Positions 1-63,406 of a stretch of DNA of 64,000 bases are shown here, in pieces; the stretch's first letter is position 1, and each line of letters opens with the position of its first letter. The stretch spans positions 32,001-96,000 of the IMG/VR virus record IMGVR_UViG_3300048892_000198, one strand, 5' to 3'. Position numbers and translations under genes: made by a program. The notes beneath the pieces were generated by a model that saw only the letters and a list, made by a program, of their open reading frames with translations, ran no database searches and was not told where the DNA came from. Source of the DNA: a virus.

Positions 1-1545
1 CAGCAGCATGCCGTAGTTCAGCAGGTCGGAGAGATTTTTTCCTGTCTTCTGCGCAACGACGTAACCTGCGGCGCGATCGAGCGCGGCGTTCGTGAGCTGC
101 TGAGCGTTCGCTTTCAGGATGTCGTTGATCTTCTTTTCGGCGCCAACGGTCGCCGCAGTCTTCACGAGATCACCGACGACGGTCACGCTCAAGATCTGAA
201 GTGCCTTCACGGCGGCTTGCTCTTGCGCAAGAGCGCTCGCCATGGAGTTCAGCCAGTTCTGCCTGGTGGTCGAGTCGAGCAGATCGACGCCGGAGGGCAC
301 CGGGTAACTGCATTGATAATGCCGCTCGGCTTCGGGAAGCCAGATCGCGCCCCTCGCCAGAAACGCTTGCGCGTCGCGCTCGAGGCCCGTCGGCATCGTC
401 AGGCCCGACACGATCGGGTAGGGGCAGCCGAAGTCCACGGGGCAGCCGTATGAGTAGACGTTGCTCCTCGCCGTCACGTCTTTGCCCTGCGCGGCGTCGT
501 AGTACGTGGAGGCCTGCACCTGGTGCCCTACCACCTGCGCGCGGTTCGCTTGGGTCTCAGCGCCCGTGAAACGCCGCGTGGGCGCGTCCCACGCGTGCGA
601 GAACGGCTGCCCAATCGGCGCGTATGTCTCGACCCCAAACCACCGAAGGTTAAACTTCCACCCGATGTTGATCTCGGCGAGCTCCCACTGAAGCTCTGTC
701 GAGAGCAGTAGCTGATCGAAGGTCTGCCAGTAGCTCGCGCGCGCGGTCGAGCAGAGGGCATTGGCTTCTGCGACGGTCGACTTAGCCCACGAGCTCTGCG
801 CGTTGATGCGCGATTGGATTTCTTCTGCGCCCGATGGGCCTGCGCCGAAGATCTGCCCGATGGTGCCCCCGATGTCTTTGCCGATGAGCCCACCAATGAA
901 GGCTCCAATGGGCGCCGGGATCCCGAATGCCTGACACACGACAGCGCCCGCGATAGCGCCCGCGACGCCGCCAATGGCTTCGCACTCGGACGGACTCAGC
1001 TTCCCGTCCATGAGCGACTCGGCCGTCACCGTCAGGATCGACGAATCAAGCCCCGTCTCCATCACGAACGCCGTCGTCGCGAGGTTGACCGCGGCGGCCT
1101 TCAGATCTTTGACGTTCGTGGGCCAGTCGGTCGGGATCTGCACACCGAGATCGCTCGCGGCAACCTTCATGGCGTACTGCTCGAGTTCTTTCTGGTTGGT
1201 CGGCACGCCATTGTCGCGCGCGTAGGCGATGAGCGCCTTCTGCATCAGCGCTTCGACCTTCTTCGGATCCTTCAAGTCGCTCACCTTGAAGCCCGGGATC
1301 CCCTTGAAGTAGGCGGCGTATTTATTGTACTCGGCGATGACTGCGGCAGCGGGTGGGTAGTTCTCGAGCTGCTGCTTGGCGTAGGCGATGGCTTGCGCCT
1401 TGGCCTGATCGACGGCGGAGCTGACCGCGGCGTCGGCCTGCTTCTTGTAGTCCTGGGCGCTCGGCACTGTATCCGAGTTGCCCGGCAGATCGCTGTAGCC
1501 AAAGAGGCCGTGACGGCGACGGCGAGGCACTGCGGCGTAGGCCAT
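1..1545 (-). CDS. Large putative virion protein with glycine-zipper hydrophobic segment (runs off the left edge, >515 aa; not in ORF track)
   Basis: ATG at 1545 overlaps the TGA of the upstream gene. Frame is open to base 1: MAYAAVPRRRRHGLFGYSDLPG...GGVAGAIAGAVVCQAFGIPAPIGAFIGGLIG...LSDLLNYGMLL. Confidence 0.85.
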   Translation of the reverse strand, partial: MAYAAVPRRRRHGLFGYSDLPGNSDTVPSAQDYKKQADAAVSSAVDQAKAQAIAYAKQQLENYPPAAAVIAEYNKYAAYFKGIPGFKVSDLKDPKKVEALMQKALIAYARDNGVPTNQKELEQYAMKVAASDLGVQIPTDWPTNVKDLKAAAVNLATTAFVMETGLDSSILTVTAESLMDGKLSPSECEAIGGVAGAIAGAVVCQAFGIPAPIGAFIGGLIGKDIGGTIGQIFGAGPSGAEEIQSRINAQSSWAKSTVAEANALCSTARASYWQTFDQLLLSTELQWELAEINIGWKFNLRWFGVETYAPIGQPFSHAWDAPTRRFTGAETQANRAQVVGHQVQASTYYDAAQGKDVTARSNVYSYGCPVDFGCPYPIVSGLTMPTGLERDAQAFLARGAIWLPEAERHYQCSYPVPSGVDLLDSTTRQNWLNSMASALAQEQAAVKALQILSVTVVGDLVKTAATVGAEKKINDILKANAQQLTNAALDRAAGYVVAQKTGKNLSDLLNYGMLL

Positions 1546-2108
1546 CAGCCGACGATCCCGTCTTTTTCCACTCCCAGGATGTCGCCCGTGATGATCGCGC
1601 AGAGTTCGGTCTTCGTGTAGACGATGAGGAAGGTGTCTCCCGAGTCGGGATGCACGGCCGCTCCCACGTAAGCGCGCGCGATGTCGACCCCATAGTACTG
1701 ACCGCTCAGGACGAGCTCTTCATCGTCGTCGCACTCGGCGTACGGCTGGTACTGGAGCCCCAAGATCGGAGCCAAGACCGCGATCGCGGTCGGCATCCGC
1801 TTCGGAAGCTCGACCTCTTCGCACGGGAATGGCAAGTGCTTGCGCGTGCTGTAGTCGCGAAGGAAGCCGTCCTTGACGTAGAGCTTCTGCGGGCCTTCGG
1901 CGACGTGCTTATAGTCCTGGTAGTCGCCGCGCTTCTTCCACTTATCTGACGTGTATTGCACGGCTTCTGACTGCCCGACGCAGTAGAGCTTTTTCGGCCA
2001 CTTCCAATGGATCTTGGTCTCCTTCTCCACCTTGCGATCGACAAAGGCCTCCCGGATCCGCTTGGCGGATTCGTAGTCGGAAGCGTTGACGATCAGGCGG
2101 CGAGACAT
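1545..2108 (-). CDS. Hypothetical viral protein (soluble, 187 aa)
   Basis: Protein-like composition. N-terminus MSRRLIVNAS. Coupled to the downstream gene. Confidence 0.8.
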   Translation of the reverse strand: MSRRLIVNASDYESAKRIREAFVDRKVEKETKIHWKWPKKLYCVGQSEAVQYTSDKWKKRGDYQDYKHVAEGPQKLYVKDGFLRDYSTRKHLPFPCEEVELPKRMPTAIAVLAPILGLQYQPYAECDDDEELVLSGQYYGVDIARAYVGAAVHPDSGDTFLIVYTKTELCAIITGDILGVEKDGIVG

Positions 2109-2114
2109 GAGGAT

Positions 2115-2513
2115 TCAGCGGCGGCGGCGGACTCTTTTGGCGCGGTCTTCAGGGTAGTACGTCTCGATGAAATCCACGAAGTCGCTCTTGGCCCGGCCAA
2201 CCATCTCGATGATCTTTTCGAGCTTGCCGAAGGTCGCCAGCCCCTTCTTATCTTCGACCGCGAGCCAGCCACCCGATCGACCGGCACGACCCACGCGACC
2301 GATCCAAGAGTACCGACGGCGGAGCTCTTGAGCCAGCACATCGAGCGCTTGGTCGGACTCGGCCGTAAACTCTTCGTCCGTCATGCTCACGCTGACCGGA
2401 GGGATCTTGATATCGAACTCGTACTCCGCGCCCTCGTCACCGATCTTCCACTTCTCATCCCAGCGACAGGACGACTCGAGCGAATGCGCAGGACCTAGTT
2501 CTCCTGGCATCAC
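2115..2513 (-). CDS. Hypothetical protein with Arg-rich C-terminus
   Basis: Lies in operon with GTGA overlap; ends KRVRRRR. Confidence 0.7.
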   Translation of the reverse strand: MMPGELGPAHSLESSCRWDEKWKIGDEGAEYEFDIKIPPVSVSMTDEEFTAESDQALDVLAQELRRRYSWIGRVGRAGRSGGWLAVEDKKGLATFGKLEKIIEMVGRAKSDFVDFIETYYPEDRAKRVRRRR

Positions 2514-2839
2514 TTCCTGCCTTTCCCAAGCAGAAACCCTAAGCCCACCCCAGCGAGCACCGCGCCTACAAACTTCCAGCCTGAGGTCGTAAAATCGAGC
2601 CCGAGACCCTTGAGGCCGGATTTGTTCATGGGGGCGACCATGCCGCGCGCGAGGGGACCCGAGCCAACGAGGCGCGCGTCGCTCGGAACACTGCGCCCGA
2701 TATCGGTCGAGGCGACGCCGAGCGGACTCGTCTTCGGCAGATTCGGGACGGGCAGATCATCTCCGAGCCCGTAGCGCGTGCTCGGGCTATCGAAATAATC
2801 ATACCCGCCCGTATCCGGGCGCCATCGCGAAAAGATCAT
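2510..2839 (-). CDS. C-terminally anchored membrane protein with GLG motifs
   Basis: RYGLGDD and LKGLGLD motifs; C-terminal TM (FVGAVLAGVGLGFLLG) followed by KGRK. Confidence 0.8.
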   Translation of the reverse strand: MIFSRWRPDTGGYDYFDSPSTRYGLGDDLPVPNLPKTSPLGVASTDIGRSVPSDARLVGSGPLARGMVAPMNKSGLKGLGLDFTTSGWKFVGAVLAGVGLGFLLGKGRK

Positions 2840-2854
2840 GCTGACCTTTGCCGC

Positions 2855-3373
2855 TTACTCGCCTTCCGGCGTCTCGTAGTACGTCACGAACACCCCAGTC
2901 GCGTCCGAAGTCTCGGTGCTGCGCACGAGCACGCTCGTCTCCGTATTGACGACTGCCCAGAGGCCTCCGATAGCGCTCGTCGGCTCTTCGGTGTAATTGA
3001 CGTGAAACCACCCTCCGGGGTTTACGTCGAAGCCTGGGATGACGACCGACGCTGGACCGCCTTCGACGCCGGGGGCGAGCGTGCCGATGCCCATCTGCAC
3101 GAGCGCCACAAAGCGCCCCGCCGCGGCTGACGAGCCAATGCCGTTGACTACATTGTCCATCCCGCTCGTGTCTTCGACGATGGAGATCGCCTGATTTTTC
3201 TTCAGGCGGTACATTCGATTAGAGTTCCGGACGAAGACGAGCGTCGCGTCCGGAAACATGTTGACGTTGAGACCGCGGAGCGATTGGCCGTCCGAGCCAT
3301 TGCCCAGCGCCCCCACCTTGTCGACGATCGTGATCCGATCGCCGACTCCAATGTTTCTCGGTGCACTATTCAT
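2855..3373 (-). CDS. Putative spike/fibre adaptor-domain protein (paralog of 3408..3878)
   Basis: Shares RITIV...SL.G.NVN.FP....FV.....Y.L.KN...NVV.G.GSSA.AGRFVAL with its neighbour. Confidence 0.8.
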   Translation of the reverse strand: MNSAPRNIGVGDRITIVDKVGALGNGSDGQSLRGLNVNMFPDATLVFVRNSNRMYRLKKNQAISIVEDTSGMDNVVNGIGSSAAAGRFVALVQMGIGTLAPGVEGGPASVVIPGFDVNPGGWFHVNYTEEPTSAIGGLWAVVNTETSVLVRSTETSDATGVFVTYYETPEGE

Positions 3374-3407
3374 GATCGAATCTCCTCAGATCTAGCGGAC
3401 ACCTGAA

Positions 3408-3878
3408 TTAGCCGACGTAGACGACCGAGTAGGTGCCCGTGTCGGCGCCGTTGGAGCTCGTGAGGCTCACGGTGTTGGGCGCCGTGATCGTGGCGTGCAC
3501 GAAGCCCGGCGTTCCGCCCGGAGTCACGAGCGTGATGATGAAGAAGCCGTTCACGCGGCTCACGTCGAAACCGGTGATACCGGTGGCGCTGCCCGCCGTG
3601 AGCACCGCCGAGCGGAGCTGCATGAGCGCGACGAAGCGGCCGGCTTCGGCAGACGATCCGACGCCGTCGACCACGTTGTTGGCCGGCGTCGCCACGACAG
3701 CGGCGTTCACGTTTTTGCGCAGGGCGTAGAAGCGACTCGAGCTCTCCACGAAGAAGAGCGCGCCCTCGGGGAAGTTGTTGACGTTTTGGCCGGCGAGCGA
3801 GTCGCCGTCCGCGGGGGTGCCGACGGAGCTGACGATCGTGATGCGCTTGGATACCGGGGTCAGAGCTAGGTCAGTCAT
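3408..3878 (-). CDS. Putative spike/fibre adaptor-domain protein (paralog of 2855..3373)
   Basis: Same N-terminal domain as 2855..3373; beta-rich C-terminus. Confidence 0.8.
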   Translation of the reverse strand: MTDLALTPVSKRITIVSSVGTPADGDSLAGQNVNNFPEGALFFVESSSRFYALRKNVNAAVVATPANNVVDGVGSSAEAGRFVALMQLRSAVLTAGSATGITGFDVSRVNGFFIITLVTPGGTPGFVHATITAPNTVSLTSSNGADTGTYSVVYVG

Positions 3879-3939
3879 GATGGTGTCTCTCTTGTCTTTG
3901 GTTGGTTGGTTAGTGGTGATCGAAGTGTAGACCGGAAGC

Positions 3940-4143
3940 CTAGCGACTGGCGCGAATTTCCTTGTGCAGCCTCACCGCGGGCAGGGCGCCGAGCAGCACA
4001 ACCGCACTCACCAATCCGCCTATCACGAACGCCGTCAGATAACCCGAGGCGCATGATTGACAAATCGTACATCCGCTTGCGTCGGTATCACCCATCGGAA
4101 TGGGCGAGGCGGCGGTGTGCATGAGGGGCATCGAGACGTACAT
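3940..4143 (-). CDS. Small membrane protein
   Basis: PMGDT motif, CxxCxxC, one TM segment, basic tail. Confidence 0.65.
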   Translation of the reverse strand: MYVSMPLMHTAASPIPMGDTDASGCTICQSCASGYLTAFVIGGLVSAVVLLGALPAVRLHKEIRASR

Positions 4144-4148
4144 GGCGG

Positions 4149-4346
4149 TTATTTCCAGGTAAAAATCAAAGTGACGACGCCAGCGCCGAGCGCGGCTCCC
4201 AGTAGCAACATCACCAGAGGGCTCGACGTATCGACGGGGGCGGAGTTCGTGCTCGGCGTCGATACCGTCACCGTGAACGGATCGCTGCCCATGCCATGAA
4301 GCGCGGGTTGCGGGTGACGCGGTGTGTAGCGATGCGGCATGTTCAT
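4149..4346 (-). CDS. Small C-terminally anchored membrane protein
   Basis: LHGMGSD motif; C-terminal TM. Confidence 0.7.
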   Translation of the reverse strand: MNMPHRYTPRHPQPALHGMGSDPFTVTVSTPSTNSAPVDTSSPLVMLLLGAALGAGVVTLIFTWK

Positions 4347-4807
4347 CTCGTGGGACGGAAGACTCCGAGGGTGTCAGCTGTTTTCAACACGAGCACTCCG
4401 GCAATAGCGACGGCGCTCCAGAACGCGATCTTGGTCACCGTGTCCGCCGCGCTCTGCAGGATCTGAGTGCTCGATTCGACCTGCGGCTTCTGCACGGTGT
4501 CGTTGCTCGATTTGACGCTCGAGTCGGCGACCGTCGGATACCCAAACGTCACAGCGTCCCAAGGAGCGGGTGACTTAACGCTGAAGATATAGAAGTCGCG
4601 AGCAGGGAAATCAGTCGTCGCCTCGAAACTCTCGGTGTCCTCTACTTGCAGTGAGGCGGCGTTCGTTTTCAGCCACGTCGACATCTTGTCGCGGTTGTCC
4701 CCAAACACGTCGAGCCAGTACCGCCCAGCGGGCAGGGGGTTCGTGCGCATGAGCACACCGAGGGCGGCAATGCTCATGGGGTTATGGACCGAGTGGTACG
4801 ACATCAC
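4343..4807 (-). CDS. Membrane-anchored protein (paralog of 4804..5253)
   Basis: NPLPAGRYWLDVFGDNR...SPAPWDAVTFGYP; C-terminal TM. Confidence 0.8.
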   Translation of the reverse strand: MMSYHSVHNPMSIAALGVLMRTNPLPAGRYWLDVFGDNRDKMSTWLKTNAASLQVEDTESFEATTDFPARDFYIFSVKSPAPWDAVTFGYPTVADSSVKSSNDTVQKPQVESSTQILQSAADTVTKIAFWSAVAIAGVLVLKTADTLGVFRPTR

Positions 4808-5253
4808 GCAGCTCGACGTTTATGCAGCACTGCAACCGTAATCGTGAGACCGATGACAGCGAGCGCACCGATGACCAACGCGGTCATGTTGCTCGAGATT
4901 GGGGCCTTTGGGGCTGAGGCGGAAGCAGGTAACGGCGCAGGCGATGCCGACGGGGATCCCGGAGCCGCGGCAGTGGGCGGCGGCTCGACGGTGATCTCTG
5001 GGTATCCAAACGTGACTGCGTCCCAAGGGACGGGGCTCGTCACCTTGAAGGTGTATTCATCGTAGGTATTCGGGTCCGAGTCATCGGTGCCAGTCGTCTG
5101 AGTGCTGAGCACCTGCACCGCGCCATGATTGGACTGAGCCCATGACGCCATCTTCGAGCGGTTGGCCCCAAACACGTCCACCCAGTACGTGCCGGGAGGA
5201 AGGGGGTTCGAGCGCTGCTCGGACCCTAAGGGTAGGGGGATCCGGTGATACAC
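4804..5253 (-). CDS. Membrane-anchored protein (paralog of 4343..4807)
   Basis: NPLPPGTYWVDVFGANR...SPVPWDAVTFGYP; Pro/Ala linker, TM, HKRR tail. Confidence 0.8.
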   Translation of the reverse strand: MYHRIPLPLGSEQRSNPLPPGTYWVDVFGANRSKMASWAQSNHGAVQVLSTQTTGTDDSDPNTYDEYTFKVTSPVPWDAVTFGYPEITVEPPPTAAAPGSPSASPAPLPASASAPKAPISSNMTALVIGALAVIGLTITVAVLHKRRAA

Positions 5254-5721
5254 TTACGCTCCCGCGCCGCGCGTCTTCTTCCAACGCTTGTAGCTGTAAT
5301 AGCTCGTCGCCAGCGCCGCGACCGCGACGGCGCCGTACACGTACGGATGCACCTGATTGAAGGGGAGCGTCACGTCCGAGCGGAGTGAGCTCACCGGATC
5401 GCCCGCCAGGAGGAAGCGCTTGACGGCGCCCGATGCGTTTTGGGAAACGCTCGCGAGCTCGGAGCTACTGACCGCGCCGAGGCCCTTGACCTGCACGTAG
5501 GAGTTTTGCGTGGGCGAATTCATGCGGTCCGTGCCTTGAAGGGAATTGTCCTGGAAGTACCCAAACTCATCGTAGGGCGCTCGAAAGTGCGCGATGCCGA
5601 CGTAGGATCGCCCAACGGGCCAGCCGTTCCGGTCTTTGGCGACCGCACCGAGCCCTTGGAGCACGGCGTTATCAAATGGCGCATAGGCGTGCGAGCGATC
5701 CACGTACAGGCGGCGAGTCAT
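5254..5721 (-). CDS. C-terminally anchored membrane protein with two GLG motifs
   Basis: Start moved to MTRRLYV (5721, coupled). LQGLGAV and VKGLGAV motifs; TM followed by KRWKK. Confidence 0.8.
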   Translation of the reverse strand: MTRRLYVDRSHAYAPFDNAVLQGLGAVAKDRNGWPVGRSYVGIAHFRAPYDEFGYFQDNSLQGTDRMNSPTQNSYVQVKGLGAVSSSELASVSQNASGAVKRFLLAGDPVSSLRSDVTLPFNQVHPYVYGAVAVAALATSYYSYKRWKKTRGAGA

Positions 5722-6776
5722 TAGACCATGCCCTTCTTCTTGGCGTAGTAGTACGCGCCGCCGGCAGCGATGACAGCCAGGCCACCCATCATGAGCGCGG
5801 CGGTCGACACCGGGTGCTTGCCGGGCGGAGTCGGCGCGGGCGGCGCGCCCGGGGGCGGCTTGGATCCGGGAGCGGCGACGGCCTTCTTCGTCGGCAGGAT
5901 GTATGCCTGGCAGTTCTGGCCACCGTTCATGGTGAGGAGATCGTTGCCGGTGTTGTCGCCGATCCATTTCATCGCGCCACAGGTCTTCGCGTCGAGCACG
6001 CCCGTGACCGGGATGGGGTTCATGCTGTTGCTCGAGAGGATCGCGTTGATCTGATTCTGGAGCGCGGGCATGTCCGAGTCGGCGACGCCCCATTGATGCA
6101 CGATGGCGGGAGCGAGCTGCTGGCCCTGCACGACGTTGGCTTGAGGCGCCACGTAGGTCTTGAGCGGAGCGGACGCGCCGACGAGAGTGGGGTTCGTGCC
6201 CTGGCCGGTGCCGCAGTAGGCGTAGAGGTTGTAGTCCGTCCACACCGTCGATTGGCGGGGGTTCGTGCTGTAGAGGTAGAAGGCGGCGCCGCAGGTGGCG
6301 GGGCCGAGTTTGCCGTCAGCCGCGATCGTCTTGTAGCCGTTCCGGGAGAGATCGGCGTTGAGCGCGGCTTGCGCCTGCTTGACCGTTGCCGAGGCGAGCG
6401 TACCGGTTTGCTGCGCGATGGCGGCGTACTGCGCGCAGTTTTTCGGCACGCAGACCGCGGCGTCGTTGGCTGCCGAGTAGGCGTTGGTGCAGTCGTCGAC
6501 CGACATGCCGTACTGAGCGGCGTTGGTTTGGCAGTCCTGAGCAGCAGCGGCAAACTGCTGCGCATGGCAGTCCTGAAACGCCTGAATGCCCCAGCACTGC
6601 CAGGGGATCTCTCCGGGGGCCGCGGACGATCCGAGGCCCGCGACGGCGCCGTTCGTGAAGTACTCGCCGGCGGAGTTACTTTGCCGAGATCCGCGCGTGA
6701 TGGGCGTGTAGCGCGGCAGCACGCTGCCGGAGAGGGGTCGCGCTTGCGCGCTACGTGGGTTGAAGATGCCGCTCAT
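5721..6776 (-). CDS. Membrane-anchored protein with two peptidoglycan-binding (PG_binding_1-like) domains
   Basis: VKQAQAALN...GY..IAADGKLGPATC and LQNQIN...VTGVLDAKTC; VAGLGSS motif; TM followed by KKK. Start moved to MSGIFNP. Confidence 0.8.
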   Translation of the reverse strand: MSGIFNPRSAQARPLSGSVLPRYTPITRGSRQSNSAGEYFTNGAVAGLGSSAAPGEIPWQCWGIQAFQDCHAQQFAAAAQDCQTNAAQYGMSVDDCTNAYSAANDAAVCVPKNCAQYAAIAQQTGTLASATVKQAQAALNADLSRNGYKTIAADGKLGPATCGAAFYLYSTNPRQSTVWTDYNLYAYCGTGQGTNPTLVGASAPLKTYVAPQANVVQGQQLAPAIVHQWGVADSDMPALQNQINAILSSNSMNPIPVTGVLDAKTCGAMKWIGDNTGNDLLTMNGGQNCQAYILPTKKAVAAPGSKPPPGAPPAPTPPGKHPVSTAALMMGGLAVIAAGGAYYYAKKKGMV

Positions 6777-6778
6777 GA

Positions 6779-7510
6779 TTAGCCTCGACGTTTCTTGATG
6801 AAGTAGACGATGCCCACCGCGAGGAGCCCGCCGCCCACGAAGCCCATCACCTTTTTGGTGTTCGAGCTCATGAGCGGGAGGGAAGAGTTGACCGATGCTT
6901 GCGCCGGCTTGATGGAGGTGACGGTGCTGCCGCCGCCCCCACCGCAGCCCGCGCTCGCGAGCGTCGGCGTTGCATAGTCCTGGCACGTGCTCGGGTTACT
7001 GTAGATGGCCCCCGAGGTGTCATCGATCGTGAGCCGATTGCGCGCGCCGCAGGTCGCCGGTCCGAGCTTTCCATCGACTGCCACCGGGCAATAGCCGGCA
7101 GCCTTGAGCGCGACGTTGGTGGCGGTTTGCAATGCCGCGGTCTTCGCGCTGTACGCGCGCCACGGGTAGTCAGCGGCGTCGCTCGTCGCGTCTCCGAGCG
7201 TGCGCGCCTTGCCGAGCGAGGGCGCGCCGGCGAGATTGCCGTCGAAGACGCCGCCGCCGTAGCCGCCGGGGCGAAAGATCCCTTCGCCCACGTTGAATTC
7301 TTGGGATCCGAGTCCTGAGTATCCGCCTGGGGGCTTGTCGGGGATCATGTCGATGTCTCTCGGTGGAAGAAAAACGGTCGTGGGCTGCTGGATCTGCGGA
7401 AACTTAAACGCCGGCCGCGACCAGATCCCGCCGTGGAAGCGCGTGGGGTAGGGCGGCACGTGCATCGTGTACGGCGTCGGCACGCCTGCGGGATAGCCGG
7501 GGCCTTTCAC
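6779..7510 (-). CDS. Membrane-anchored protein with one PG-binding-like domain
   Basis: ALQTATNVALKAAGYCPVAVDGKLGPATC; YSGLGSQ motif; TM followed by KKRR. GTG start coupled to the upstream stop. Confidence 0.8.
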   Translation of the reverse strand: MKGPGYPAGVPTPYTMHVPPYPTRFHGGIWSRPAFKFPQIQQPTTVFLPPRDIDMIPDKPPGGYSGLGSQEFNVGEGIFRPGGYGGGVFDGNLAGAPSLGKARTLGDATSDAADYPWRAYSAKTAALQTATNVALKAAGYCPVAVDGKLGPATCGARNRLTIDDTSGAIYSNPSTCQDYATPTLASAGCGGGGGSTVTSIKPAQASVNSSLPLMSSNTKKVMGFVGGGLLAVGIVYFIKKRRG

Positions 7511-8055
7511 TTGTGCTCCAGCGCGATGATGGCCTCGATGCCGAGACCGATGGGTCCCCCGAGGAGCGCCGCGGCGACGCCCCACCAGGCGTATTTCGAC
7601 TCGCGATCGCGGCTCGGCGCGACGGCCTTGCCGACGTAGTAGCCGCCGACGCCCGAGAGTACGATGCCGACTGCCGCAGCGGCGATGACGACCGCGCTCG
7701 CTGCAGCGACGGGTGCCGCCGCGCCGGGCACGGTTGGAGTGGTCGCATCACCGAGACCACTCACGGCCCGCACGGCGCGCACGAGGGGCGAGCCATTGAG
7801 CACGCGACCGAGCACACCAGAGCTGGTGGCTGACGGCGTCGGCATCTCGTACAGGCGCGAGTACGAGCCGATGCCGTCGGGGCTGCCGCGCATCCCGAGC
7901 GGCGCCATCGGATAGGCCGCGGGGTTGTACTGGGCATTGCCGTAGCCAGCGTTGGCTTGCACGACATCGTTGTGCCGCACCGGGAGCTGTTGCCCTGAGC
8001 TCACGACGCCGGGGGTCGTCAGCACTTCGTCTTCGTCGTCTTGATAGTCAAACAT
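7507..8055 (-). CDS. Membrane protein with two C-terminal TM segments and GLG motif
   Basis: Start MFDYQDD; VSGLGDA motif; two hydrophobic helices. Confidence 0.8.
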   Translation of the reverse strand: MFDYQDDEDEVLTTPGVVSSGQQLPVRHNDVVQANAGYGNAQYNPAAYPMAPLGMRGSPDGIGSYSRLYEMPTPSATSSGVLGRVLNGSPLVRAVRAVSGLGDATTPTVPGAAAPVAAASAVVIAAAAVGIVLSGVGGYYVGKAVAPSRDRESKYAWWGVAAALLGGPIGLGIEAIIALEHK

Positions 8056-8756
8056 CACTTCTTCTTTCGAAAGAGCGCGTAGAGAGCGCCCGCGGCGGCG
8101 CCCACGAGCAGCACCTTGACGACGGTGGATGACGAATCGGCAGCAGGAGCCGGCGCGGGGAGCGAGGCGTCGCCGTAGCCCTGCACGCCGTAGCCTGAGT
8201 CCCGGATGCTCTGCGGATCTTGCATCCAATTGGCGATGTTGACGCCGGGCATGGGAGCAGCCTCTTGCCAGCGCACGACGTTTCTTGGCGTGCTGTAGCG
8301 GCCCTGCTCGATGAATGCGATCTGCGCCGCCGAATCGAGGCTGACGGCGCCCGAGGGCACCGCCACCACGCGGCGTCCGGTTGTCGCATCGACCACCTCG
8401 GTCTTACTGAAGGGCACCTCGCGCGCGTGGTAACCGGGGAGCGAATAGCGCGCAGCAAACACGCCCGCGTCCGGGTGCACGTTGGGGTGCGTGCCCGGGG
8501 GATCGAAGACACCGTTCGATTGGATGTCGTCCATCTCGGCCAGGAGCTCGAGTTCGTTAGAGGCCCAGCCGGGGTTGGCCGATTCGTCGGAGACTTCGGT
8601 GTCGGTGCCGGCGAGCCTTCGGCCGTAGCGCCGGTCGAAGGGCGCGGCGTAGCCCGGGGCGAGATTGCTCGTATAGCGGAGATCGGAGGGACCGACCGCA
8701 ACCATCGACGGCAGATCGCCCGTGTAGGGCTGGGACGGGTACATGGGGTAGCGCAT
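8055..8756 (-). CDS. C-terminally anchored membrane protein
   Basis: VQGYGDA motif; TM followed by RKKK. Confidence 0.8.
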   Translation of the reverse strand: MRYPMYPSQPYTGDLPSMVAVGPSDLRYTSNLAPGYAAPFDRRYGRRLAGTDTEVSDESANPGWASNELELLAEMDDIQSNGVFDPPGTHPNVHPDAGVFAARYSLPGYHAREVPFSKTEVVDATTGRRVVAVPSGAVSLDSAAQIAFIEQGRYSTPRNVVRWQEAAPMPGVNIANWMQDPQSIRDSGYGVQGYGDASLPAPAPAADSSSTVVKVLLVGAAAGALYALFRKKK

Positions 8757-8777
8757 GGTGATCTTGTTTCTTTCCGC

Positions 8778-9158
8778 TCAACCGGTGGCGACCTTGAAGA
8801 CGACGATGGCGGCGATGGTGACGCCCAGGTAAAGGCCCCAGCGAGTCTTCACCGATTGGGAGACGGCCGCTGGGGCGAAGGGGGAAGCGCAGTGGGTCTG
8901 GGTGATGACGCCCCAGGCGCCTTTCTGCGCGCCCTGCGTGGCGCGCTTGGGGATGGTCTCGACGACGCGCGTCTGACCATCGGGGCACGGGAAGGGCGCG
9001 GCGCACGGGAGCACCTGCGCTTCTGCGCACTCGGGCGAATCGATATCGACCTGGTTACACGCCAGCTGCGCGGCTTTCCAGGAAGCGAAATCGGTGCACG
9101 TCGAGGCGACGGGATTGTCTCCCATGCCGCGCTGCTGGATGGTGGCAGAATAACTCAT
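8778..9158 (-). CDS. Cys-rich C-terminally anchored membrane protein
   Basis: Start moved to MSYSATIQQRGMGDN; CTDFASWKAAQLACN; C-terminal TM. Confidence 0.75.
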   Translation of the reverse strand: MSYSATIQQRGMGDNPVASTCTDFASWKAAQLACNQVDIDSPECAEAQVLPCAAPFPCPDGQTRVVETIPKRATQGAQKGAWGVITQTHCASPFAPAAVSQSVKTRWGLYLGVTIAAIVVFKVATG

Positions 9159-9163
9159 CTGGG

Positions 9164-9784
9164 TTAGGACTTCTTCCTCATCACCAAGTAGAGCGCGCCG
9201 CCGCCGACTGCGAGCGCCGCGAGCAGGCCCCAGTGACTGAATCCTCCGGCAGCTCCCTTCTGCGACACGATGGTGCCGCCGGGGATCGGAGCGGCGGGAG
9301 CCGCAGCCGGCGAAGAGCAACTGCAGATCGTGGCCGACAGTCCCCATTTCCCATTGAGCGCTTGCTTCGGTAGCCGCTCGCAGGTGTGCACCTGCCCAGG
9401 GGGGCACGAGTCGGGGCCTCCGCAGGGCAGCTGGGAGGCGACCGAGCAGGGATCGTTCGGGTCGATGGGGCTTGAGAGGATGGCGGGGGTACCACCGGAG
9501 CGCGAATTGCTCGCAGCGGCCTGCGCCGCGGCTTGCGCCGCCATCGACGCGATCGCCGATTGCGACATGGGCGCCGTCGGGGAAGGGGACGGACTCGAGG
9601 TCGGCGTGGCGTAACCGATGATCGAGCTCGGGTCGATTGAGCCGGTGATCGTGAAGCCGAGACCGCGGAGCCCCGCGACGCCCGTTGCCGCGTACCCGAA
9701 GCCCTTGACGGACGCGGCCTGCTGCAGTCGCGCGTTGCACGCGAGTTGCGCTTGCTTCCAGACTTGATTGTCGAGACAAGCCAT
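9164..9784 (-). CDS. Cys-rich C-terminally anchored membrane protein
   Basis: CLDNQVWKQAQLACN; LRGLGF motif; TM followed by RKKS. Confidence 0.8.
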   Translation of the reverse strand: MACLDNQVWKQAQLACNARLQQAASVKGFGYAATGVAGLRGLGFTITGSIDPSSIIGYATPTSSPSPSPTAPMSQSAIASMAAQAAAQAAASNSRSGGTPAILSSPIDPNDPCSVASQLPCGGPDSCPPGQVHTCERLPKQALNGKWGLSATICSCSSPAAAPAAPIPGGTIVSQKGAAGGFSHWGLLAALAVGGGALYLVMRKKS

Positions 9785-10506
9785 CAGGCAGCCGCTTTCG
9801 GTTTTTTGAAGGTCCTGTAAAGCGCGTAGCCGCCGACTGCGACCACGACCAGGATGAGCCCGTTGGAGAGCATGCCGGCGGATTTCTTCGTGGGCGTCGT
9901 CGTGATGGGCCCGGGAGATCCAGGCGTGATAGCAGGCACGGGAGCAGATGCGGGCGGCATCGGCTCGGGGCGTAGGTCGCCTGGCGGAGGACCCAGGACG
10001 GGCTGCGCAGGCGGGGTCGGCTGCGGACGCAAGGGCGCGATGGCGGGGAGAGCCGGCGGGCAGACTGGCAGCAGTGCCAGCGCGCAGGCGGAGCCAGTGG
10101 GATCGGCGCCGAGGCCGCGCACCGTTTGCGACATGGCGCTGCAGGTCTGCTGCCAGTTGTCGTGCTGGGCTTGCGAGACGCAGCCCGGGTAACCTGCAGG
10201 AGTGACCGCGCCCGCGGCCCGCGCCGCGGCGTTGGCCTGATCGAGCGCTCTCTGATTTTTGAGCTGCTGCTGCGTGCGCGCCACGAATGCCGCCGCGCGC
10301 GCTGCCTGCTCGGCCTTCCAGGCCGCGAGATCGCGCTGATAGCTCGCGAGCTGCGAAGCGTAGCCGGCGGCCGCGCCCGCGCTTTGAGCCGCGTAAGCTG
10401 CGACGGCGTTGTCGTGGCCCGCCTTCTCTTGCAGCCAGGCCGCGTGATCGGAGGCATAGTCGCCGAGCCCAGCGATCTTTCCGTGATAGGCGCGCGCGTA
10501 ACTCAT
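9784..10506 (-). CDS. Ala-rich, Pro-rich C-terminally anchored membrane protein
   Basis: IAGLGDY and VRGLGAD motifs; TM followed by FKKPK. Confidence 0.8.
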   Translation of the reverse strand: MSYARAYHGKIAGLGDYASDHAAWLQEKAGHDNAVAAYAAQSAGAAAGYASQLASYQRDLAAWKAEQAARAAAFVARTQQQLKNQRALDQANAAARAAGAVTPAGYPGCVSQAQHDNWQQTCSAMSQTVRGLGADPTGSACALALLPVCPPALPAIAPLRPQPTPPAQPVLGPPPGDLRPEPMPPASAPVPAITPGSPGPITTTPTKKSAGMLSNGLILVVVAVGGYALYRTFKKPKAAA

Positions 10507-11039
10507 CCTTCGATCCTCCAAATTTTGTGAGTCGTCACGCGACTGAGCATCGTTGCCTCGTCGGTGCCCGCGACCGGATCGCAGATGATCCAGCGCTGGC
10601 TCTTGGGCTCTTGCACCCGGCAGAAGACGTGAGCGAAGGAATTGGGGCGCCCGAATCCGACGGTGACGTACTCGATCTCGCGGCCAAGCTGGCGGCAGAG
10701 CGTGCCGACGAGGAGCGCGATCTCATCGCAGTCGGCGACGGCTTTTCCGTGCTGCACGATCTCTTCGCACATGCGCTCGGGATCTTGCACCTGCTCGACC
10801 GCAACGGCGTCGTTCGAGTACTTGACCTTTTCGGCGACGAAGTTTCTGACGGCCAAGATCTCCGACACGTAGTCCTTGGGCGCGATGTCCCGGACGATGT
10901 GATCCTTCAGCGACCGCACGAGCGTCGACTGCTCGCCGCGTGGGCCGACCGTCATCGAGATCATGAGCAGGATGGTGTCCTGCGGCCCATGGAAGGGTCG
11001 GATCGCGGTCGGTTGGGTAGCAGCGATGGCGGAGGGCAT
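10503..11039 (-). CDS. Transglutaminase-like cysteine protease/transglutaminase
   Basis: Catalytic triad motifs ADCDE (C), FAHVF (H), ICDP (D); preceding VKY..D...EQVQDP pattern is typical of the family. Confidence 0.85.
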   Translation of the reverse strand: MPSAIAATQPTAIRPFHGPQDTILLMISMTVGPRGEQSTLVRSLKDHIVRDIAPKDYVSEILAVRNFVAEKVKYSNDAVAVEQVQDPERMCEEIVQHGKAVADCDEIALLVGTLCRQLGREIEYVTVGFGRPNSFAHVFCRVQEPKSQRWIICDPVAGTDEATMLSRVTTHKIWRIEG

Positions 11040-11100
11040 GGGTCGGCCTACACGAGACCAACCTGAATCGCTCACACGCCGCGAACGGTCTGTATTTGGA

Positions 11101-11135
11101 AGCCTACCCGGGCCGGGGGATCCTCCGCAACTTTT
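11101..11135 (-). promoter_or_regulatory. Class-1 promoter AAAAG-TTGCGG-N18-TAGGCT driving the virion membrane-protein operon
   Basis: Intergenic; same motif and spacing recur upstream of other structural genes. Confidence 0.7.
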
Positions 11136-12058: not shown

Positions 12059-14581
12059 TCATTTGAGCCGTTTTTTCAGCTCTTCGAAGAGCGCGCGGAG
12101 GTATTTCTTACCGTCACGGCGCAGGAATGGCGAATCTGGGTTTCCTGAGCGCTGAATAGCCAGGATCACGCGCTCGGCATCGGTGGAGCTCAAGAGGCCG
12201 GCGACGGTCTCTGCGCCAAAATTCTGAAACATCCCCGTCGCCAGATCGGGAACAGAGATGTTCGATTCGTAGGGCTCGAGCAATAGCTGCTCGGCCTGCA
12301 GGATCTGTTGGTCTTCTTCGAGCGCCCCTGGATCGATACCCTGCTGCGGGGGAGCCGTGGGCGCCGGCCCCATGGGCGGGGGCGGCGTGCTCGGTTGCGC
12401 CACCCTTGGCGGCGGCGCGCTCGGGGCAGGCGCAACGCGCGCCAGTTGTTGCATCTGGGGCGCGGGCTCGGGGGGAGGTGGCGGCACCGAGTAGCCCTGC
12501 GGGAAGTGCTGCACGGGCACTGGCATCGGCTGATGCTGCTGCGGGGGAGGCGGGGCTGGCACCACGTACTCGGGCTCCGGTTGCACCACGAAGGGATCCA
12601 TACCGGGGCTGATAGGCGCCGGGCCCACTTCCGACATGTGCCGCGGGACGAAGCCCGACTCGAGCGCGCGGCGACGATGCGCGGGTGGGAGGCCTGGAGC
12701 GACCAAGCCGTGAGAGGCCTGCTCGATCATTTCGTTGCGCCCCTGCTGGCGCGCGGCTTGGAGATCTTGAGCGCTCCGCTGCTTGAGCATTCCGCTGATG
12801 TTTTCGATGATGCTCGGCAGATTGCTGATGACGCCGCCTCCGGCTTTCATCAGCATCTGACTGATCGTTTCGGGCTCGGAGGAGCTCTCGGAAGCGTCGA
12901 TCATCCCGAACTCAGCTGCTTGCTCCTTGATCTTGGCGATCTTACCGACCACGTCTTTATTTTCTTCGGCGTCACGCTTGTAGCGCTCGACATCAGAGGC
13001 TGTGCGCTTGACCTCGCCGCGGGCGGTCTCGAGCCGCATCTCGTAGGAGGCCTTGAGCGACTCCATCGCCATCGCGTGCTGAGCCTTGAGCGAGTCCATG
13101 TCGCGCTGGTGGTTGCGCACCTCGGAGCTGAGTGCGATCTCGTGGTTGCGCGCTTCGGCGGCGGTGGCGGTCGTGTGCTGATGCTGCAGATCGCTCACGC
13201 GGCGATCGGCTTCGTCCTTGGCGCGCTGGATCTCGCGATCGGCACGCTCACGCAAGTCTCGCTCGAGTTGAGCCGAGCGATCGGAAAATTCTTTGATGCG
13301 AGCGTCGGCTCGAGCTTCCGCATCTCGGATGATTCGGTCGCCGCGGTCGCGCTCGTCCTTGATGCGCTGCTCGGCGCGATCGTGATCTTCTTTGCTCTGG
13401 CGATTGAGCCGGTCGAGCTCGCGGGCGTGATCGGCGCGCAGGGACTCGAGTGCTGCTGATGAGGCCCCCGGATCGCCTTGGAGATTTTTGCTGATGGCGA
13501 GGGCCGTATCGAGCTCGCTACGCTCAGGTTTTTTGGATGCAAATTTCTCTTCGAGATCTTTCTGCATCTGGCGCATCTCTTCTTGATGCTGGCGCTGCAT
13601 CTCGAGCGATTCGCGCCGAAACTCCGCCTGCGCGTCAGCGAGGGAGCGCGCCAGATCGGTGTTCTGCTTGGCGAGGGTGTTTTGCTCGCGCTCGCGATCC
13701 TTTTGCCGCTGCTCGTCACGCTCACGCTCGGCGTTTTTTCGCTTCTCTTCGCGTTCCTCGCGCGTGAGGGCCGCGTCGACTTCGATCTTGGCGACCTGGG
13801 CATCGGCGCTCGATACGGGGCGGCGGCTGTGGTGGAGTCCGGGCATGGTCTGGGTCATTTCGGCCTCGTCATCGTACACTTCACCTTCGAAACTGGGAAT
13901 ACCCGGAAACGTGACCGTCATGGGCTCGGTCAACGCCTTGGGAGGCACGCGGCCATCGGCGTTGAGCACGCCGCCGCGCTTAGGGGGACCGTAGACGATG
14001 AGCTTGTAGGTGCCGCCCCCATAGGTCGCCTGCCAATCGGCGAGCGTCATGGGTCCGGTGATGGGGCGCAAGATCCCAGCAACCTTGCGTCCACCGAAGA
14101 GCTTCGGATCTTTCCGCTCCACGTAGATGTACTGGTTGATGCCGTCGAGCGCGGGAAACATGCTGAAGAGATCGATCAGCGTCTCGGGCGCGGATAGGCT
14201 CGCCACGAAATCCGGCGGCGCGTCCTCGGTCGCGATGACCGGGCTGACGGTGATCCCCTCGCGCTTGTGGATGTCGGGCTCGGGGTGCGGCACTGCCTCG
14301 TCGCCGTCCGTGAAGAGCTCAATGCGAGAAGCGAGATCGGGCGCGGCGATCGGCTCTTCCTGCTCGGAGGAGGCGAGGGCTTGCAAGAATTCTGGGTGCG
14401 CTTCGGCTACCTCTGCGACCTCGCGAGATAGATGGCGCTGCGCTACCTCGTCGATCGACTTGGCGCGCTCCGCTACAGCCACCCGCACGGCGCGCACGAG
14501 CCGTTCGCCGCCGACTTCGATGGTGTCGGAGGTGTCGGGCACGAGGCGCCGCTTGGGCGGCGTAGCGGAAGGCTCGGGCAT
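12059..14581 (-). CDS. Large coiled-coil protein with Pro/Gln-rich linker (840 aa)
   Basis: Long E/R/Q/A heptad-rich central region; Pro-rich segment; globular ends. Confidence 0.85.
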   Translation of the reverse strand: MPEPSATPPKRRLVPDTSDTIEVGGERLVRAVRVAVAERAKSIDEVAQRHLSREVAEVAEAHPEFLQALASSEQEEPIAAPDLASRIELFTDGDEAVPHPEPDIHKREGITVSPVIATEDAPPDFVASLSAPETLIDLFSMFPALDGINQYIYVERKDPKLFGGRKVAGILRPITGPMTLADWQATYGGGTYKLIVYGPPKRGGVLNADGRVPPKALTEPMTVTFPGIPSFEGEVYDDEAEMTQTMPGLHHSRRPVSSADAQVAKIEVDAALTREEREEKRKNAERERDEQRQKDREREQNTLAKQNTDLARSLADAQAEFRRESLEMQRQHQEEMRQMQKDLEEKFASKKPERSELDTALAISKNLQGDPGASSAALESLRADHARELDRLNRQSKEDHDRAEQRIKDERDRGDRIIRDAEARADARIKEFSDRSAQLERDLRERADREIQRAKDEADRRVSDLQHQHTTATAAEARNHEIALSSEVRNHQRDMDSLKAQHAMAMESLKASYEMRLETARGEVKRTASDVERYKRDAEENKDVVGKIAKIKEQAAEFGMIDASESSSEPETISQMLMKAGGGVISNLPSIIENISGMLKQRSAQDLQAARQQGRNEMIEQASHGLVAPGLPPAHRRRALESGFVPRHMSEVGPAPISPGMDPFVVQPEPEYVVPAPPPPQQHQPMPVPVQHFPQGYSVPPPPPEPAPQMQQLARVAPAPSAPPPRVAQPSTPPPPMGPAPTAPPQQGIDPGALEEDQQILQAEQLLLEPYESNISVPDLATGMFQNFGAETVAGLLSSTDAERVILAIQRSGNPDSPFLRRDGKKYLRALFEELKKRLK

Positions 14582-26999: not shown

Positions 27000-27031
27000 A
27001 GTGCTACGGCGTCGGCGGGAACATTCTTCCC
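27000..27031 (-). promoter_or_regulatory. Class-2 promoter GGGAAG-N17-CGTAGCAC
   Basis: Same motif and spacing as 42995..43027 and 53940..53972. Confidence 0.6.
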
Positions 27032-27582
27032 TCGAGCACCGCCCCATCGATCACGTGAAATGCACGCTCGACGCGCAAATCGAGGATCGATCCCAGGGTG
27101 CGCGTCGGCGGGTGGCCCAGCTTCATGTTTTGCAGCACGAGCAGCGAATCGAGCACAAACTCGTACATCCGGTGGTAGCCCCGGGACTCGAGGTTGACCG
27201 CCAGGTCGAGCTTCTGGTGATTGCGCACGTGCAGCAGAAATACGAGATCGTAGCGCCGCATCGCGCTCGAAAACACGTCGAGCGCACTTTCTTCCACGTG
27301 CTCGGCCATGTGCAGCGTGCAATAGGTGAGGTTATCGAAGTAGGTGCGGTCGGTCACGAAGTCTTCGTGGGCGAGCTCCCAGTCGCGCTTGCTCTCGAAG
27401 AGCCGCTTCTGGAACTCCACGCGCCGACCGGCCTGATCCACATCGTAGGGATTGTCGAAGCCCATCTCGAGCGCGACCGATCGAGCGCCGACGGGATTGA
27501 CGGGGATCTGGTACTTCTCGGAGATGGCCCGGGCGAGCGTGGTCTTGCCGGTGCCGCTCGCCCCTGCGATCGCGATCCTCAT
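27004..27582 (-). CDS. P-loop NTPase, AAA_28/NadR-type, probable nucleotide kinase
   Basis: IAIAGASGTGKTTLA; FVTDRT..DN..Y; YDLVF. Confidence 0.8.
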   Translation of the reverse strand: MRIAIAGASGTGKTTLARAISEKYQIPVNPVGARSVALEMGFDNPYDVDQAGRRVEFQKRLFESKRDWELAHEDFVTDRTYFDNLTYCTLHMAEHVEESALDVFSSAMRRYDLVFLLHVRNHQKLDLAVNLESRGYHRMYEFVLDSLLVLQNMKLGHPPTRTLGSILDLRVERAFHVIDGAVLEGRMFPPTP

Positions 27583-51338: not shown

Positions 51339-51665
51339 ATGAGCTACGTCGCGCTCCCGCCTACTCCCCGCCTCGTGCGCCCGCTTGCGCCGTCCCGCTT
51401 CGGACGCGGCCTCAAGGGCCTTGGCACGATGCTCGATGACAATATGTTTACGAGCGCGTGGTACTTGCCGCTGGTCGAGAAGATCAACAAGGTGACCGGC
51501 GCTCGCTCGTACGCCTGGGCGCCTTACAAGTACCTATCCAATTGGGATGCGCTCAGTTACAACATGAGCTTCACGCAGTATACCCCGACCACTCAGCAAG
51601 AGTCGACGCTCTACCAGTGGGACGGATCGAGCTGGCGCAAAACCAGCGTGCAGTCAGACGCCTGA
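51339..51665 (+). CDS. Small protein with basic leader and GLG motif
   Basis: RFGRGLKGLGTMLDD; RBS AAGGA. Confidence 0.75.
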   Translation: MSYVALPPTPRLVRPLAPSRFGRGLKGLGTMLDDNMFTSAWYLPLVEKINKVTGARSYAWAPYKYLSNWDALSYNMSFTQYTPTTQQESTLYQWDGSSWRKTSVQSDA

Positions 51666-63301: not shown

Positions 63302-63406
63302 CGACCCACTAGGTCGGTTTGGGTCCGCGTTCGAGCGCGGGGACAGACGGGACGACAGAGCGTTGGCGCAGATGCGCGCCCTTTCCTCTGGAGCTCCCCC
63401 TTGGCC

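Follow-up and report, generated by a model that had tools for sequence, protein, structure and literature searches.

A Glycine-Centred Tag Shared by Late Membrane Proteins of a Large, Uncultured Tailless Virus and Linked to a Transglutaminase-Fold Cysteine Enzyme

RESULTS

A late gene block with a recurrent tag

We analysed a 64,000-nucleotide stretch of viral DNA (the window) that represents bases 32001-96000 of a single 110,728-bp IMG/VR virus record (IMGVR_UViG_3300048892_000198; 63.5% GC). At its start lies a block of late genes in which about 15 mostly unrelated membrane-anchored proteins share a short tag of the form hydrophobic-x-Gly-Leu/Met/Phe-Gly, and the first gene of this block encodes a cysteine enzyme predicted to have a transglutaminase fold. 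The DNA belongs to a large, uncultured bacterial virus without a tail. Its record is classed as linear, with an estimated completeness of 82%. Among its genes are bacterial-type ones for replication and transcription (DnaB, a beta clamp and two sigma-70 factors); others encode an R2K ATP-grasp protein, several glycosyltransferases and a number of GT1/GT2/GT4 and methyltransferase fusions. About 50 larger open reading frames (ORFs; some 40% of those called) were scanned with Pfam and PHROG, without a match to any terminase, portal, capsid (HK97-type included) or tail gene. BLAST found no gp40-like packaging ATPase, and a Walker-A motif is present in a single small protein (27004-27582). No host can be named, because the relatives of DnaB are distant and scattered over many phyla (27-43% identity over the best segment, 31-37% over the full length). 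The enzyme has no relative in the 185,579 species genomes searched for a host or prophage, and a near-identity search of the block against phage records returned no match.

Within the window, the block runs on the minus strand from position 11039 to position 1 and comprises 19 densely packed genes; it extends a further 10 kb ahead of the window (genome 21,700-32,000, the prefix denoting positions in the full record). The initial annotation, made from the sequence without database searches, had described these genes as co-transcribed. The whole basis for this is the tight packing on one strand, with stops and starts overlapping at 10503/10506, 9784, 8055, 5721, 4804/4807, 4343/4346 and 2510, and a scan for sigma-70 promoters and terminators recognised no signal above chance, which leaves unconfirmed the promoter class that the block and the distant carriers had been said to share. 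The enzyme gene, the tag carriers and their neighbours are as follows (aa, amino acids; MSY start, N-terminus beginning with MSY).

10503-11039, minus strand: first gene of the block, 178-aa Cys-His-Asp enzyme with a predicted transglutaminase fold (PF01841, AlphaFold2 [AF2] model), homologue of gp34 of SSIP-1 (Salisaeta icosahedral phage 1)
9784-10506, minus strand: tail-anchored protein, 240 aa, MSY start; IAGLGDY (10462-10470) and VRGLGAD (10108-10116)
9164-9784, minus strand: Cys-rich tail-anchored protein, 206 aa; VKGFGYA (9695-9703) and LRGLGFT (9656-9664)
8778-9158, minus strand: Cys-rich tail-anchored protein, 126 aa, MSY start; QRGMGDN (9120-9128)
8055-8756, minus strand: conserved tail-anchored protein, 233 aa; juxtamembrane VQGYGDA (8172-8180)
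7507-8055, minus strand: membrane protein, 182 aa; VSGLGDA (7750-7758) and NAGYGNA
6779-7465, minus strand: tail-anchored protein, 228 aa, with a segment resembling peptidoglycan (PG)-binding domains; YSGLGSQ (7307-7315)
5721-6776, minus strand: Cys-rich tail-anchored protein, 351 aa, weak PG_binding_1 match; VAGLGSS (6630-6638)
5254-5721, minus strand: tail-anchored protein, 155 aa; LQGLGAV (5647-5655) and VKGLGAV (5476-5484)
4149-4346, minus strand: tail-anchored protein, 65 aa; LHGMGSD (4287-4295)
2510-2839, minus strand: conserved protein, 109 aa, starting MIFSRWRPDTGGY; RYGLGDD (2762-2770) and LKGLGLD (2600-2608)
1545-2108, minus strand: conserved soluble protein, 187 aa, ending in KDGIVG, motif-free; present in all relatives with enough flank
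1-1545, minus strand: large late protein, 531 aa, running past the window start; N-terminus MAYAAVPRRRRHGLFGYSD, Gly-zipper helix
50916-51326, plus strand: distant carrier, membrane protein; YPGFGDD
51339-51665, plus strand: distant carrier, 108 aa, MSY start; LKGLGT at residue 27

Every peptide quoted in the initial annotation for the G-phi-G motif (phi, hydrophobic residue) was found in the gene named for it, including the two carriers 40 kb from the block and the looser variants HGLFGYS (1-1545) and PMGDT (3940-4143). Ten block proteins carry G-[LMFY]-G outside a membrane helix, and nearly all ten lack an N-terminal signal sequence and close with a hydrophobic helix and a K/R tail, features that had been noted earlier and are legible in the carrier sequences. 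The protein encoded directly after the enzyme is one of these carriers: the start of its gene (9784-10506) overlaps the stop of the enzyme gene, its N-terminus reads MSYARAYHGKIAGLGDY, and it ends in a helix and KKPKAAA. The tag may lie beside the anchor, as in 2510-2839, where LKGLGLD adjoins the helix and the KGRK tail, or ahead of a domain, as in 5721-6776, where VAGLGSS precedes the Cys-rich domain by about 10 aa.

Further carriers are found in the part of the block outside the window. They include a 138-aa tail-anchored protein with an MSY start and three tandem copies of [NE]GLGAYFKPEYEK (genome 22624-23040), a neighbouring product starting MSYVAVRGLGEA, and carriers of VGLGDAE and SGLGADD. 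Just before the window start, genome 29204-31357 encodes a 717-aa protamine-like protein whose first roughly 430 residues are nearly pure Arg/Lys; hydrophobic helices follow, and the C-terminal part bears three copies of [NS]GLGEYF and several of EAAAG[YMF]GA.

The tag is enriched at the protein level

Enrichment was assessed against 1000 composition-preserving shuffles. The general form G[LMYF]G was observed 20 times versus 5.3 +/- 2.3 times in the shuffled proteins, and the narrower G[LM]G[DSA] 10 times versus 0.8, a count that none of the 1000 shuffles attained. The density of the narrower form is 2.78 per 1000 aa in the block and 0.39 in the remaining 115 ORFs, a roughly sevenfold difference, while the control patterns GAG and G[IV]G are not enriched. 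The proposal that the motif exceeds the GC-driven background is thus borne out. As a guard against a motif chosen post hoc, we also counted the carriers of every tripeptide among 31 late proteins. GLG had by far the largest absolute count (14 carriers versus 3.8 expected, z 5.8), and MSY stood out by its score (5 carriers versus 0.29 expected, z 8.6). M-S/A-Y N-termini, with which many carriers begin, are strongly over-represented among the late-block proteins and co-occur with the Gly tag; they are found in the window at 9784-10506, 8778-9158, 4343-4804 and 51339-51665 and in the full record at genome 22370-23040 and 31950-33545, and the lone case outside the block (51339-51665) is itself a tag carrier.

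The Gly codons of the motif use all four third bases, M, F and Y substitute for L, and the near-constant CTC is the genome's usual Leu codon before Gly. The signal therefore resides at the protein level, which rules out a DNA element or an odd codon choice as its origin. In a logo built from 82 instances outside helices, position -2 is L/V/I/M in about 49% of cases, the central residue is L (45), F (15), M (14) or Y (8), and the second Gly is followed by D/A/S/E. This extends the consensus to phi-x-G-[LMF]-G-[DAES], which often lies 10-50 residues past an M-S/A-Y start; no Gln, Lys, Ser, Thr or Cys is conserved at a fixed offset in the logo. Two familiar readings of GLGD, the presenilin-type GxGD and the RTX repeat GGxGxD, were rejected, given that the motifs lie outside helices, occur singly rather than in nonapeptide arrays, and do not conserve the Asp.

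Two details of the earlier description required adjustment. The carriers are mostly unrelated, as had been stated, but the pairs 5721/6779 and 8778/9164 each have a common domain, located away from the motif. Likewise, the leaders preceding the N-proximal copies, previously called Y/P/R-rich, are enriched in R and Y and also in H and F, while P is only slightly elevated.

The tag is conserved in related viruses

With the enzyme gene as query, we recovered nine more IMG/VR contigs of 20-144 kb (48-83% identity; designated below by L numbers). The enzyme gene stands at the head of the block in every relative, and the order that follows is shared: a series of small tail-anchored proteins, then one that starts MIYSRWKPDTGGY, the soluble KDGIVG protein and the large Gly-zipper protein. 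Since the motif had been defined on the window, these relatives constitute an out-of-sample test. In seven of eight loci, G[LM]G[DSAE] reaches 1.2-3.3 per 1000 aa downstream of the enzyme versus 0-0.45 in the 10 kb upstream, which corresponds to 2-7 observed copies versus 0.2-0.9 in shuffled sequences; the eighth locus, L010, offers a single downstream ORF with zero copies. The expected conservation in related genomes was thereby confirmed, and it includes a relative of 56% GC (L014) and proteins of the relatives that are not homologous to those in the window.

Alignments of individual families reveal the tag as an island between drifting flanks. The 5254 family aligns LQGLGAV, LQGLGCG and FAGLGDA (the last from L005), the 6779 family YSGLGSQ, YSGLGNV and YKGLGAE (L005), and the 7507 family VSGLGDA, VSGLGED (L006) and VAGLGMG (L005). 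Both motifs of 9164-9784 are retained in L006 (VKGFGYV and LRGLGDL) and both motifs of the 2510 family in L004, which also conserves the 717-aa protamine-like protein. Orthologues of 9784-10506 in L006 and L007 carry LAGMGDA at residue 11. In the L005 orthologue of 5721-6776 the motif lies at residue 9 (MAYTSLRGGLGAG), which makes its leader 8 aa long as against 46 aa in the window, with the motif held at the domain boundary. The same 125-kb relative encodes two tail-anchored proteins resembling SLT-type lytic transglycosylases, with identical C-terminal tails (12673-13353 and 13359-14027), the first of which has MGLGSD between the catalytic domain and the anchor helix.

The deepest sampling comes from the 8055-8756 family. 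G193 and G195 are invariant in seven orthologues (31-81% identity), inside a juxtamembrane linker that is otherwise unalignable. A collection of 5.8 billion proteins holds 244 clusters of this family, on contigs of up to 185 kb, none of which has a name or a Pfam domain. Within the 45 residues preceding the C-terminal helix, G-phi-G occurs in 84 of the 118 members that have such a helix, versus 11.4 for shuffled linkers (maximum 22); most of the others show the one-Gly form I-A-I-G-A-D. The motif is subject to purifying selection and is restricted to the block of late membrane proteins.

The first gene of the block encodes an intact transglutaminase-fold enzyme

The product of 10503-11039 matches Pfam PF01841 (Transglut_core) with an E value of 1.4e-5 and 25.7 bits against a cut-off of 23, over profile positions 5-108 of 108. 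As the initial annotation had claimed, the Cys-His-Asp triad is intact: C104, H137 and D154 are invariant in nine homologues (44-83% identity) and align with the triad of PNGase 2f4m. The AF2 model (pLDDT 84.8, pTM 0.83) lets us assign with confidence a papain-like core fold of the transglutaminase/LapG/PNGase kind. Its Foldseek neighbours are 3isr (a putative Cys protease, E 3.7e-5), 2f4m (PNGase), 3kd4, 9crn, TglA, 4u65_E (LapG), PeiW/PeiP and TG2. This fold leaves the chemistry unsettled, because the superfamily spans endoproteases, amidases, isopeptidases and cross-linkers. A profile search of the PDB with the enzyme gave no LapG match at E <= 10, and neither a signal peptide nor a wall-binding domain is found in the enzyme. 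The 110,728-bp record, about 82% complete by estimate, has no match at E <= 10 to the adenain/Ulp1-like families Peptidase_C5/C48 (PF00770, PF02902). Co-folding of the enzyme with residues 1-45 of the 9784-10506 protein scored 0.01, which speaks neither for nor against an interaction.

A homologous enzyme is annotated as a structural protein of SSIP-1

Compared with 50,697 phage records, the enzyme had a sole match, gp34 of SSIP-1 (tblastn E 3e-3 in 2.3 Gb; blastp E 3e-8), and its best fold match in BFVD is a protein of 304 aa, the same length as gp34 (E 5.6e-9, TMq 0.71). This phage is icosahedral and tailless, and it has an internal membrane and two types of capsid protein (PMC6356626). Its gp34 (JN880423, 21296-22210) is annotated in GenBank as a "structural protein", which places this homologue of the enzyme in the virion, and its gene heads the late block. 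A single gp34 chain combines the enzyme domain, an ARGMGEP copy of the tag and a C-terminal membrane helix. The same enzyme, tag and anchor are split in the present virus between the enzyme gene and the overlapping next gene, and this correspondence ties the enzyme to the tagged class of proteins.

As in the present virus, the gp34 gene is followed by a block of small, mostly tail-anchored proteins with G[LM]G. N-proximal copies occur in ORF36 (AQGMGDI, residue 17), gp37 (NRGLGAG, residue 34), ORF52 (RAGLGLL, residue 18) and gp53 (DPGMGSV, residue 31); ORF36, ORF52 and gp53 have a C-terminal membrane helix and gp37 has none. The enrichment in SSIP-1 is weak (4 versus 1.39 in late genes, P 0.044; 0 in early genes). 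The two viruses differ in that SSIP-1 has a genome of 43.8 kb and carries enzyme, tag and anchor on one chain, whereas the present virus has at least 110 kb and a protamine-like core protein, and no other protein of the present virus has a convincing match in SSIP-1.

Other genes of the block and window

The soluble KDGIVG protein (1545-2108) ends in KDGIVG or KDGIAG in all relatives examined. Its AF2 model is all-beta with a low pLDDT (66.5), and it has no relative in Pfam, PHROG, the PDB (Foldseek and VIA-align, best Z 3.1), the Atlas or the phage records. The large protein 1-1545 has weak PHROG tape-measure and lysin matches, limited to its Gly-rich helix. The beta-rich proteins 2855-3373 and 3408-3878 (minus strand) are paralogues with 39% identity that share an internal NG[IV]GSSA[AE]AGRF, akin to AGLGSSAAPGE of 5721-6776; counterparts are absent at that position in L009 and L011. 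For 2855-3373, the Atlas model bears a weak likeness to phage fibre and beta-sandwich domains (TM <= 0.42), too slight to assign a capsid role. Elsewhere, a 72% GC stretch on the plus strand (56172-58313) is a collagen-like gene with period-9 Gly-X-Y repeats, and a second collagen-repeat protein of 1695 aa starts at 63401 and runs beyond the window; both are collagen-like fibre genes.

DISCUSSION

A candidate maturation code

Given a conserved tag on late membrane proteins and an intact Cys enzyme encoded at the head of the same block, we wondered what the two have to do with each other. The reading we favour, with a probability of roughly 0.4, is a maturation code, in which the tagged late membrane proteins are trimmed at the tag by the co-encoded enzyme. 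The tag phi-x-G-[LMF]-G-[DAES] would mark late proteins destined for the lipid membrane of the tailless virion. We infer that the tail-anchored carriers insert from the cytoplasmic side, with their basic tails toward the DNA and their N-terminal parts, which would include Cys-rich, PG-binding and, in the relatives, lytic-transglycosylase modules, toward the capsid. During or after assembly, the enzyme, either soluble or anchored, might then cut the flexible segment at the tag, probably as phi-x-G-phi/G (the slash marking the scissile bond). By such a cut, short leaders would be lost or domains released from their anchors, as happens when the adenovirus protease and phage T4 gp21 act at their shared sites.

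Several lines of evidence favour this reading. The tag has the form of a protease site and lies at domain boundaries behind leaders of variable length; a strict linkage joins it to an intact Cys enzyme whose SSIP-1 homologue is virion-borne; and there are precedents in LapG, adenovirus and T4. It is conserved as an island in linkers that cannot otherwise be aligned, and it is enriched both in the unbiased tripeptide scan and in seven of eight related loci. In SSIP-1, the joining of enzyme domain, tag and membrane helix in gp34 and the tag copies in four small late proteins point the same way. Finally, the 717-aa protamine-like carrier parallels the adenovirus core proteins VII and mu, which are cut by the viral protease (PMC3386624).

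Other observations weigh against it. In some copies, a mere 2-9 residues separate the tag from the N-terminus (MTNGLGEY in L008, MFSGLGAT in L005, MGLGKT in the present genome), where a cut would remove almost nothing. The tandem triplets [NS]GLGEYF and [NE]GLGAYFKPEYEK, spaced at 10-13 aa, look like multivalent binding sites. Roughly 29% of the 8055-family homologues lack the first Gly (IAIGADA), so that the strictly kept element is phi-G-[ADE], and in the 2510 family the distant L005 orthologue is relaxed to DLGND and QLG. With respect to the enzyme, the fold neighbours include non-proteases (PNGase, the pseudomurein isopeptidases PeiW/PeiP and true transglutaminases), the Pfam scan (E <= 0.01) lists PF01841 alone and thus does not place the enzyme in the LapG family by sequence, and its task might be to act on the cell wall from within the virion, with no relation to the tag.

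The initial annotation had proposed a propeptide or targeting system in which leaders are cleaved at, or recruited through, the motif. What stands of this proposal is a real, conserved late-block motif linked to an intact enzyme, together with a concrete tie, through gp34 of SSIP-1, to a true membrane-containing phage; cleavage, a protease activity of the enzyme, and any action of the enzyme on the motif, go beyond these data. The choice between cutting and recruitment is likewise left open, since the copies close to the N-terminus, the tandem triplets and the juxtamembrane copies fit docking equally well or better.

Alternative roles of the tag

The strongest alternative, plausible if less probable, is that the tag is an uncut docking motif. 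Membrane proteins and the DNA-condensing core protein would bind a common hub (capsid, scaffold or matrix), which would draw the carriers into a membrane patch specific to the virus or fasten the membrane to the shell, and the enzyme would be otherwise employed. Docking would accommodate the free position of the tag (N-terminal, internal or juxtamembrane), the multiple copies in several proteins with their regularly spaced triplets, the copies next to the N-terminus and a first Gly that is dispensable in part of the 8055 family. The resemblance between the shared segment of 2855-3373 and 3408-3878 and the tag region of 5721-6776 would fit as well. However, a partner for the tag has yet to emerge, the fold obtained for the KDGIVG protein could not be interpreted, a tiny Gly-centred motif with a hydrophobic P4 is more typical of protease sites than of binding motifs, and docking would leave unexplained why the tag is so strictly linked to a catalytically intact Cys enzyme.

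It is unlikely that the tag, though real, is read by another recogniser (an S8 subtilase from another part of the genome, a protease of the host or the host's insertion machinery) while the enzyme serves in entry or lysis as a virion-associated wall hydrolase, comparable to the PRD1 lytic enzymes or PeiW/PeiP. An alternative candidate protease does exist in the form of a Peptidase_S8 (subtilase) gene (genome 7662-8843), far from the late block. PeiP and PeiW are among the fold neighbours of the enzyme, with PeiP of phage psiM2 in the viral library, the SSIP-1 homologue resides in the virion as entry lysins do, and the block contains PG-binding-like and, in L005, SLT-like modules. Yet the S8 gene lies 25 kb away, the enzyme has neither the signal peptide nor the wall-binding domain of such a hydrolase, and gp34, in which enzyme, tag and anchor are fused, connects the enzyme with the tagged proteins.

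Less likely again, the tag might be the site of another covalent change, such as cross-linking or transamidation, deamidation, or glycan or lipid attachment in the D/S/A-rich flank, made by the enzyme or by glycosyltransferases. TG2, TglA and PNGase provide true cross-linkers and amidases among the fold neighbours, the virus encodes the GT1/GT2/GT4 and methyltransferase fusions mentioned above, and Ser and Asp are frequent after the tag. The conserved Gly and hydrophobic residues, however, offer no modifiable side chain, and the logo has no residue with a suitable one at a fixed offset.

That the tag serves no specific function and arises as a side effect of disordered, Gly/Ala-rich linkers in a genome high in GC, or of common ancestry of the carriers, is hardly credible: the block region is indeed 62-67% GC, its proteins are Gly- and Ala-rich and two carrier pairs are paralogous, but the shuffles never attain the observed count, the GAG and G[IV]G controls are unenriched, the motif persists at 56% GC and in non-homologous proteins, paralogous similarity excludes the motif and synonymous codons vary, so that chance or composition as the cause of the pattern is essentially excluded.

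Comparison with known maturation systems

Shared cleavage or targeting codes are known from adenovirus, poxviruses, African swine fever virus and tailed phages such as T4 and phiKZ. In the T4 system, with prohead protease gp21 and its capsid-targeting leaders, and in the phiKZ-type head protease system, the short N-terminal leaders of many head proteins end in a common tripeptide site and serve both targeting into the particle and removal. These enzymes are serine proteases of the herpesvirus assemblin type that cut with Glu at P1 and act on soluble internal substrates in tailed phages. As in the present virus, a short common site thus occurs in many otherwise unrelated particle proteins; the carriers described here differ in being membrane proteins of a tailless virus.

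The closest parallel to the site itself is that of the adenovirus protease (AVP, adenain), which recognises (M/I/L)XGX-G and (M/I/L)XGG-X in pIIIa, pVI, pVII, pVIII, mu and pTP (PMC3386624). The phi-x-G-phi-G of the present virus has the form of the first of these. Both systems feature one Gly-centred site, whose hydrophobic residue stands at the fourth position ahead of the scissile (here, putative) bond, in many unrelated minor capsid or basic core proteins and at N-proximal, C-proximal or multiple locations, and the link to SSIP-1 would set the present virus, like adenovirus, in the world of membrane-containing and jelly-roll viruses. The enzymes are different: adenain has the clan CE fold with a His-Glu-Cys order, whereas the enzyme described here has the Cys-His-Asp order of the transglutaminase/papain type and tail-anchored candidate substrates.

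Among enzymes of this fold, LapG and its relatives, the bacterial transglutaminase-like cysteine proteinases (BTLCP), offer a functional precedent. LapG cuts LapA between small residues, at 108AA109 (PMC10990149), and a membrane-anchored variant, DvhG, exists (PMC10990149, PMC3032545). It shares the Cys-His-Asp triad and is a site-specific endoprotease acting on a flexible N-terminal segment; the structural matches to our enzyme are moderate (4u65_E, TMq 0.55; 4fgq, TMq 0.48). In contrast to what we propose here, LapG is periplasmic and calcium-dependent, and it has one substrate in biofilm control. PeiW and PeiP of archaeal (pro)phages are also virus-encoded Cys enzymes with a transglutaminase fold, but they cut isopeptide bonds of the cell wall and carry wall-binding repeats, and their fold match is weak (8z4f, 8jx4 and Q77WJ4; E 1e-3 to 6e-3, TMq 0.40-0.45).

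Implications

In full-text literature searches we found no such code reported for membrane-containing bacterial viruses, no paper describing the tag, and none that links SSIP-1 to a transglutaminase or describes its gp34 as a transglutaminase-fold Cys enzyme. What appears to be new is therefore a candidate maturation or targeting tag, shared by the membrane proteins of a new group of large tailless phages, together with a candidate protease of transglutaminase fold. The assembly of membrane-containing bacterial viruses is poorly understood, and the tag offers a means to list, from sequence data only, the probable virion membrane proteome of a large and previously unrecognised virus group, whose size is hinted at by the at least 244 clusters of one protein family alone, on contigs of up to 185 kb. 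The idea is directly testable, as SSIP-1, which has the same arrangement, is cultured.

It is tempting to go a step further, with somewhat less confidence than in the trimming of tagged proteins itself, and to suggest that a widespread, uncultured, SSIP-1-related clade of tailless viruses (110-185 kb) matures its internal-membrane virion by means of a transglutaminase-fold protease that cuts 15-25 tail-anchored proteins and a protamine-like core protein at phi-x-G-phi/G, which would amount to an adenovirus-like code built on a different fold. Should the enzyme prove to be the protease, virion maturation by a protease of transglutaminase fold would be without precedent, and the adenovirus site rule would have been copied by convergence.

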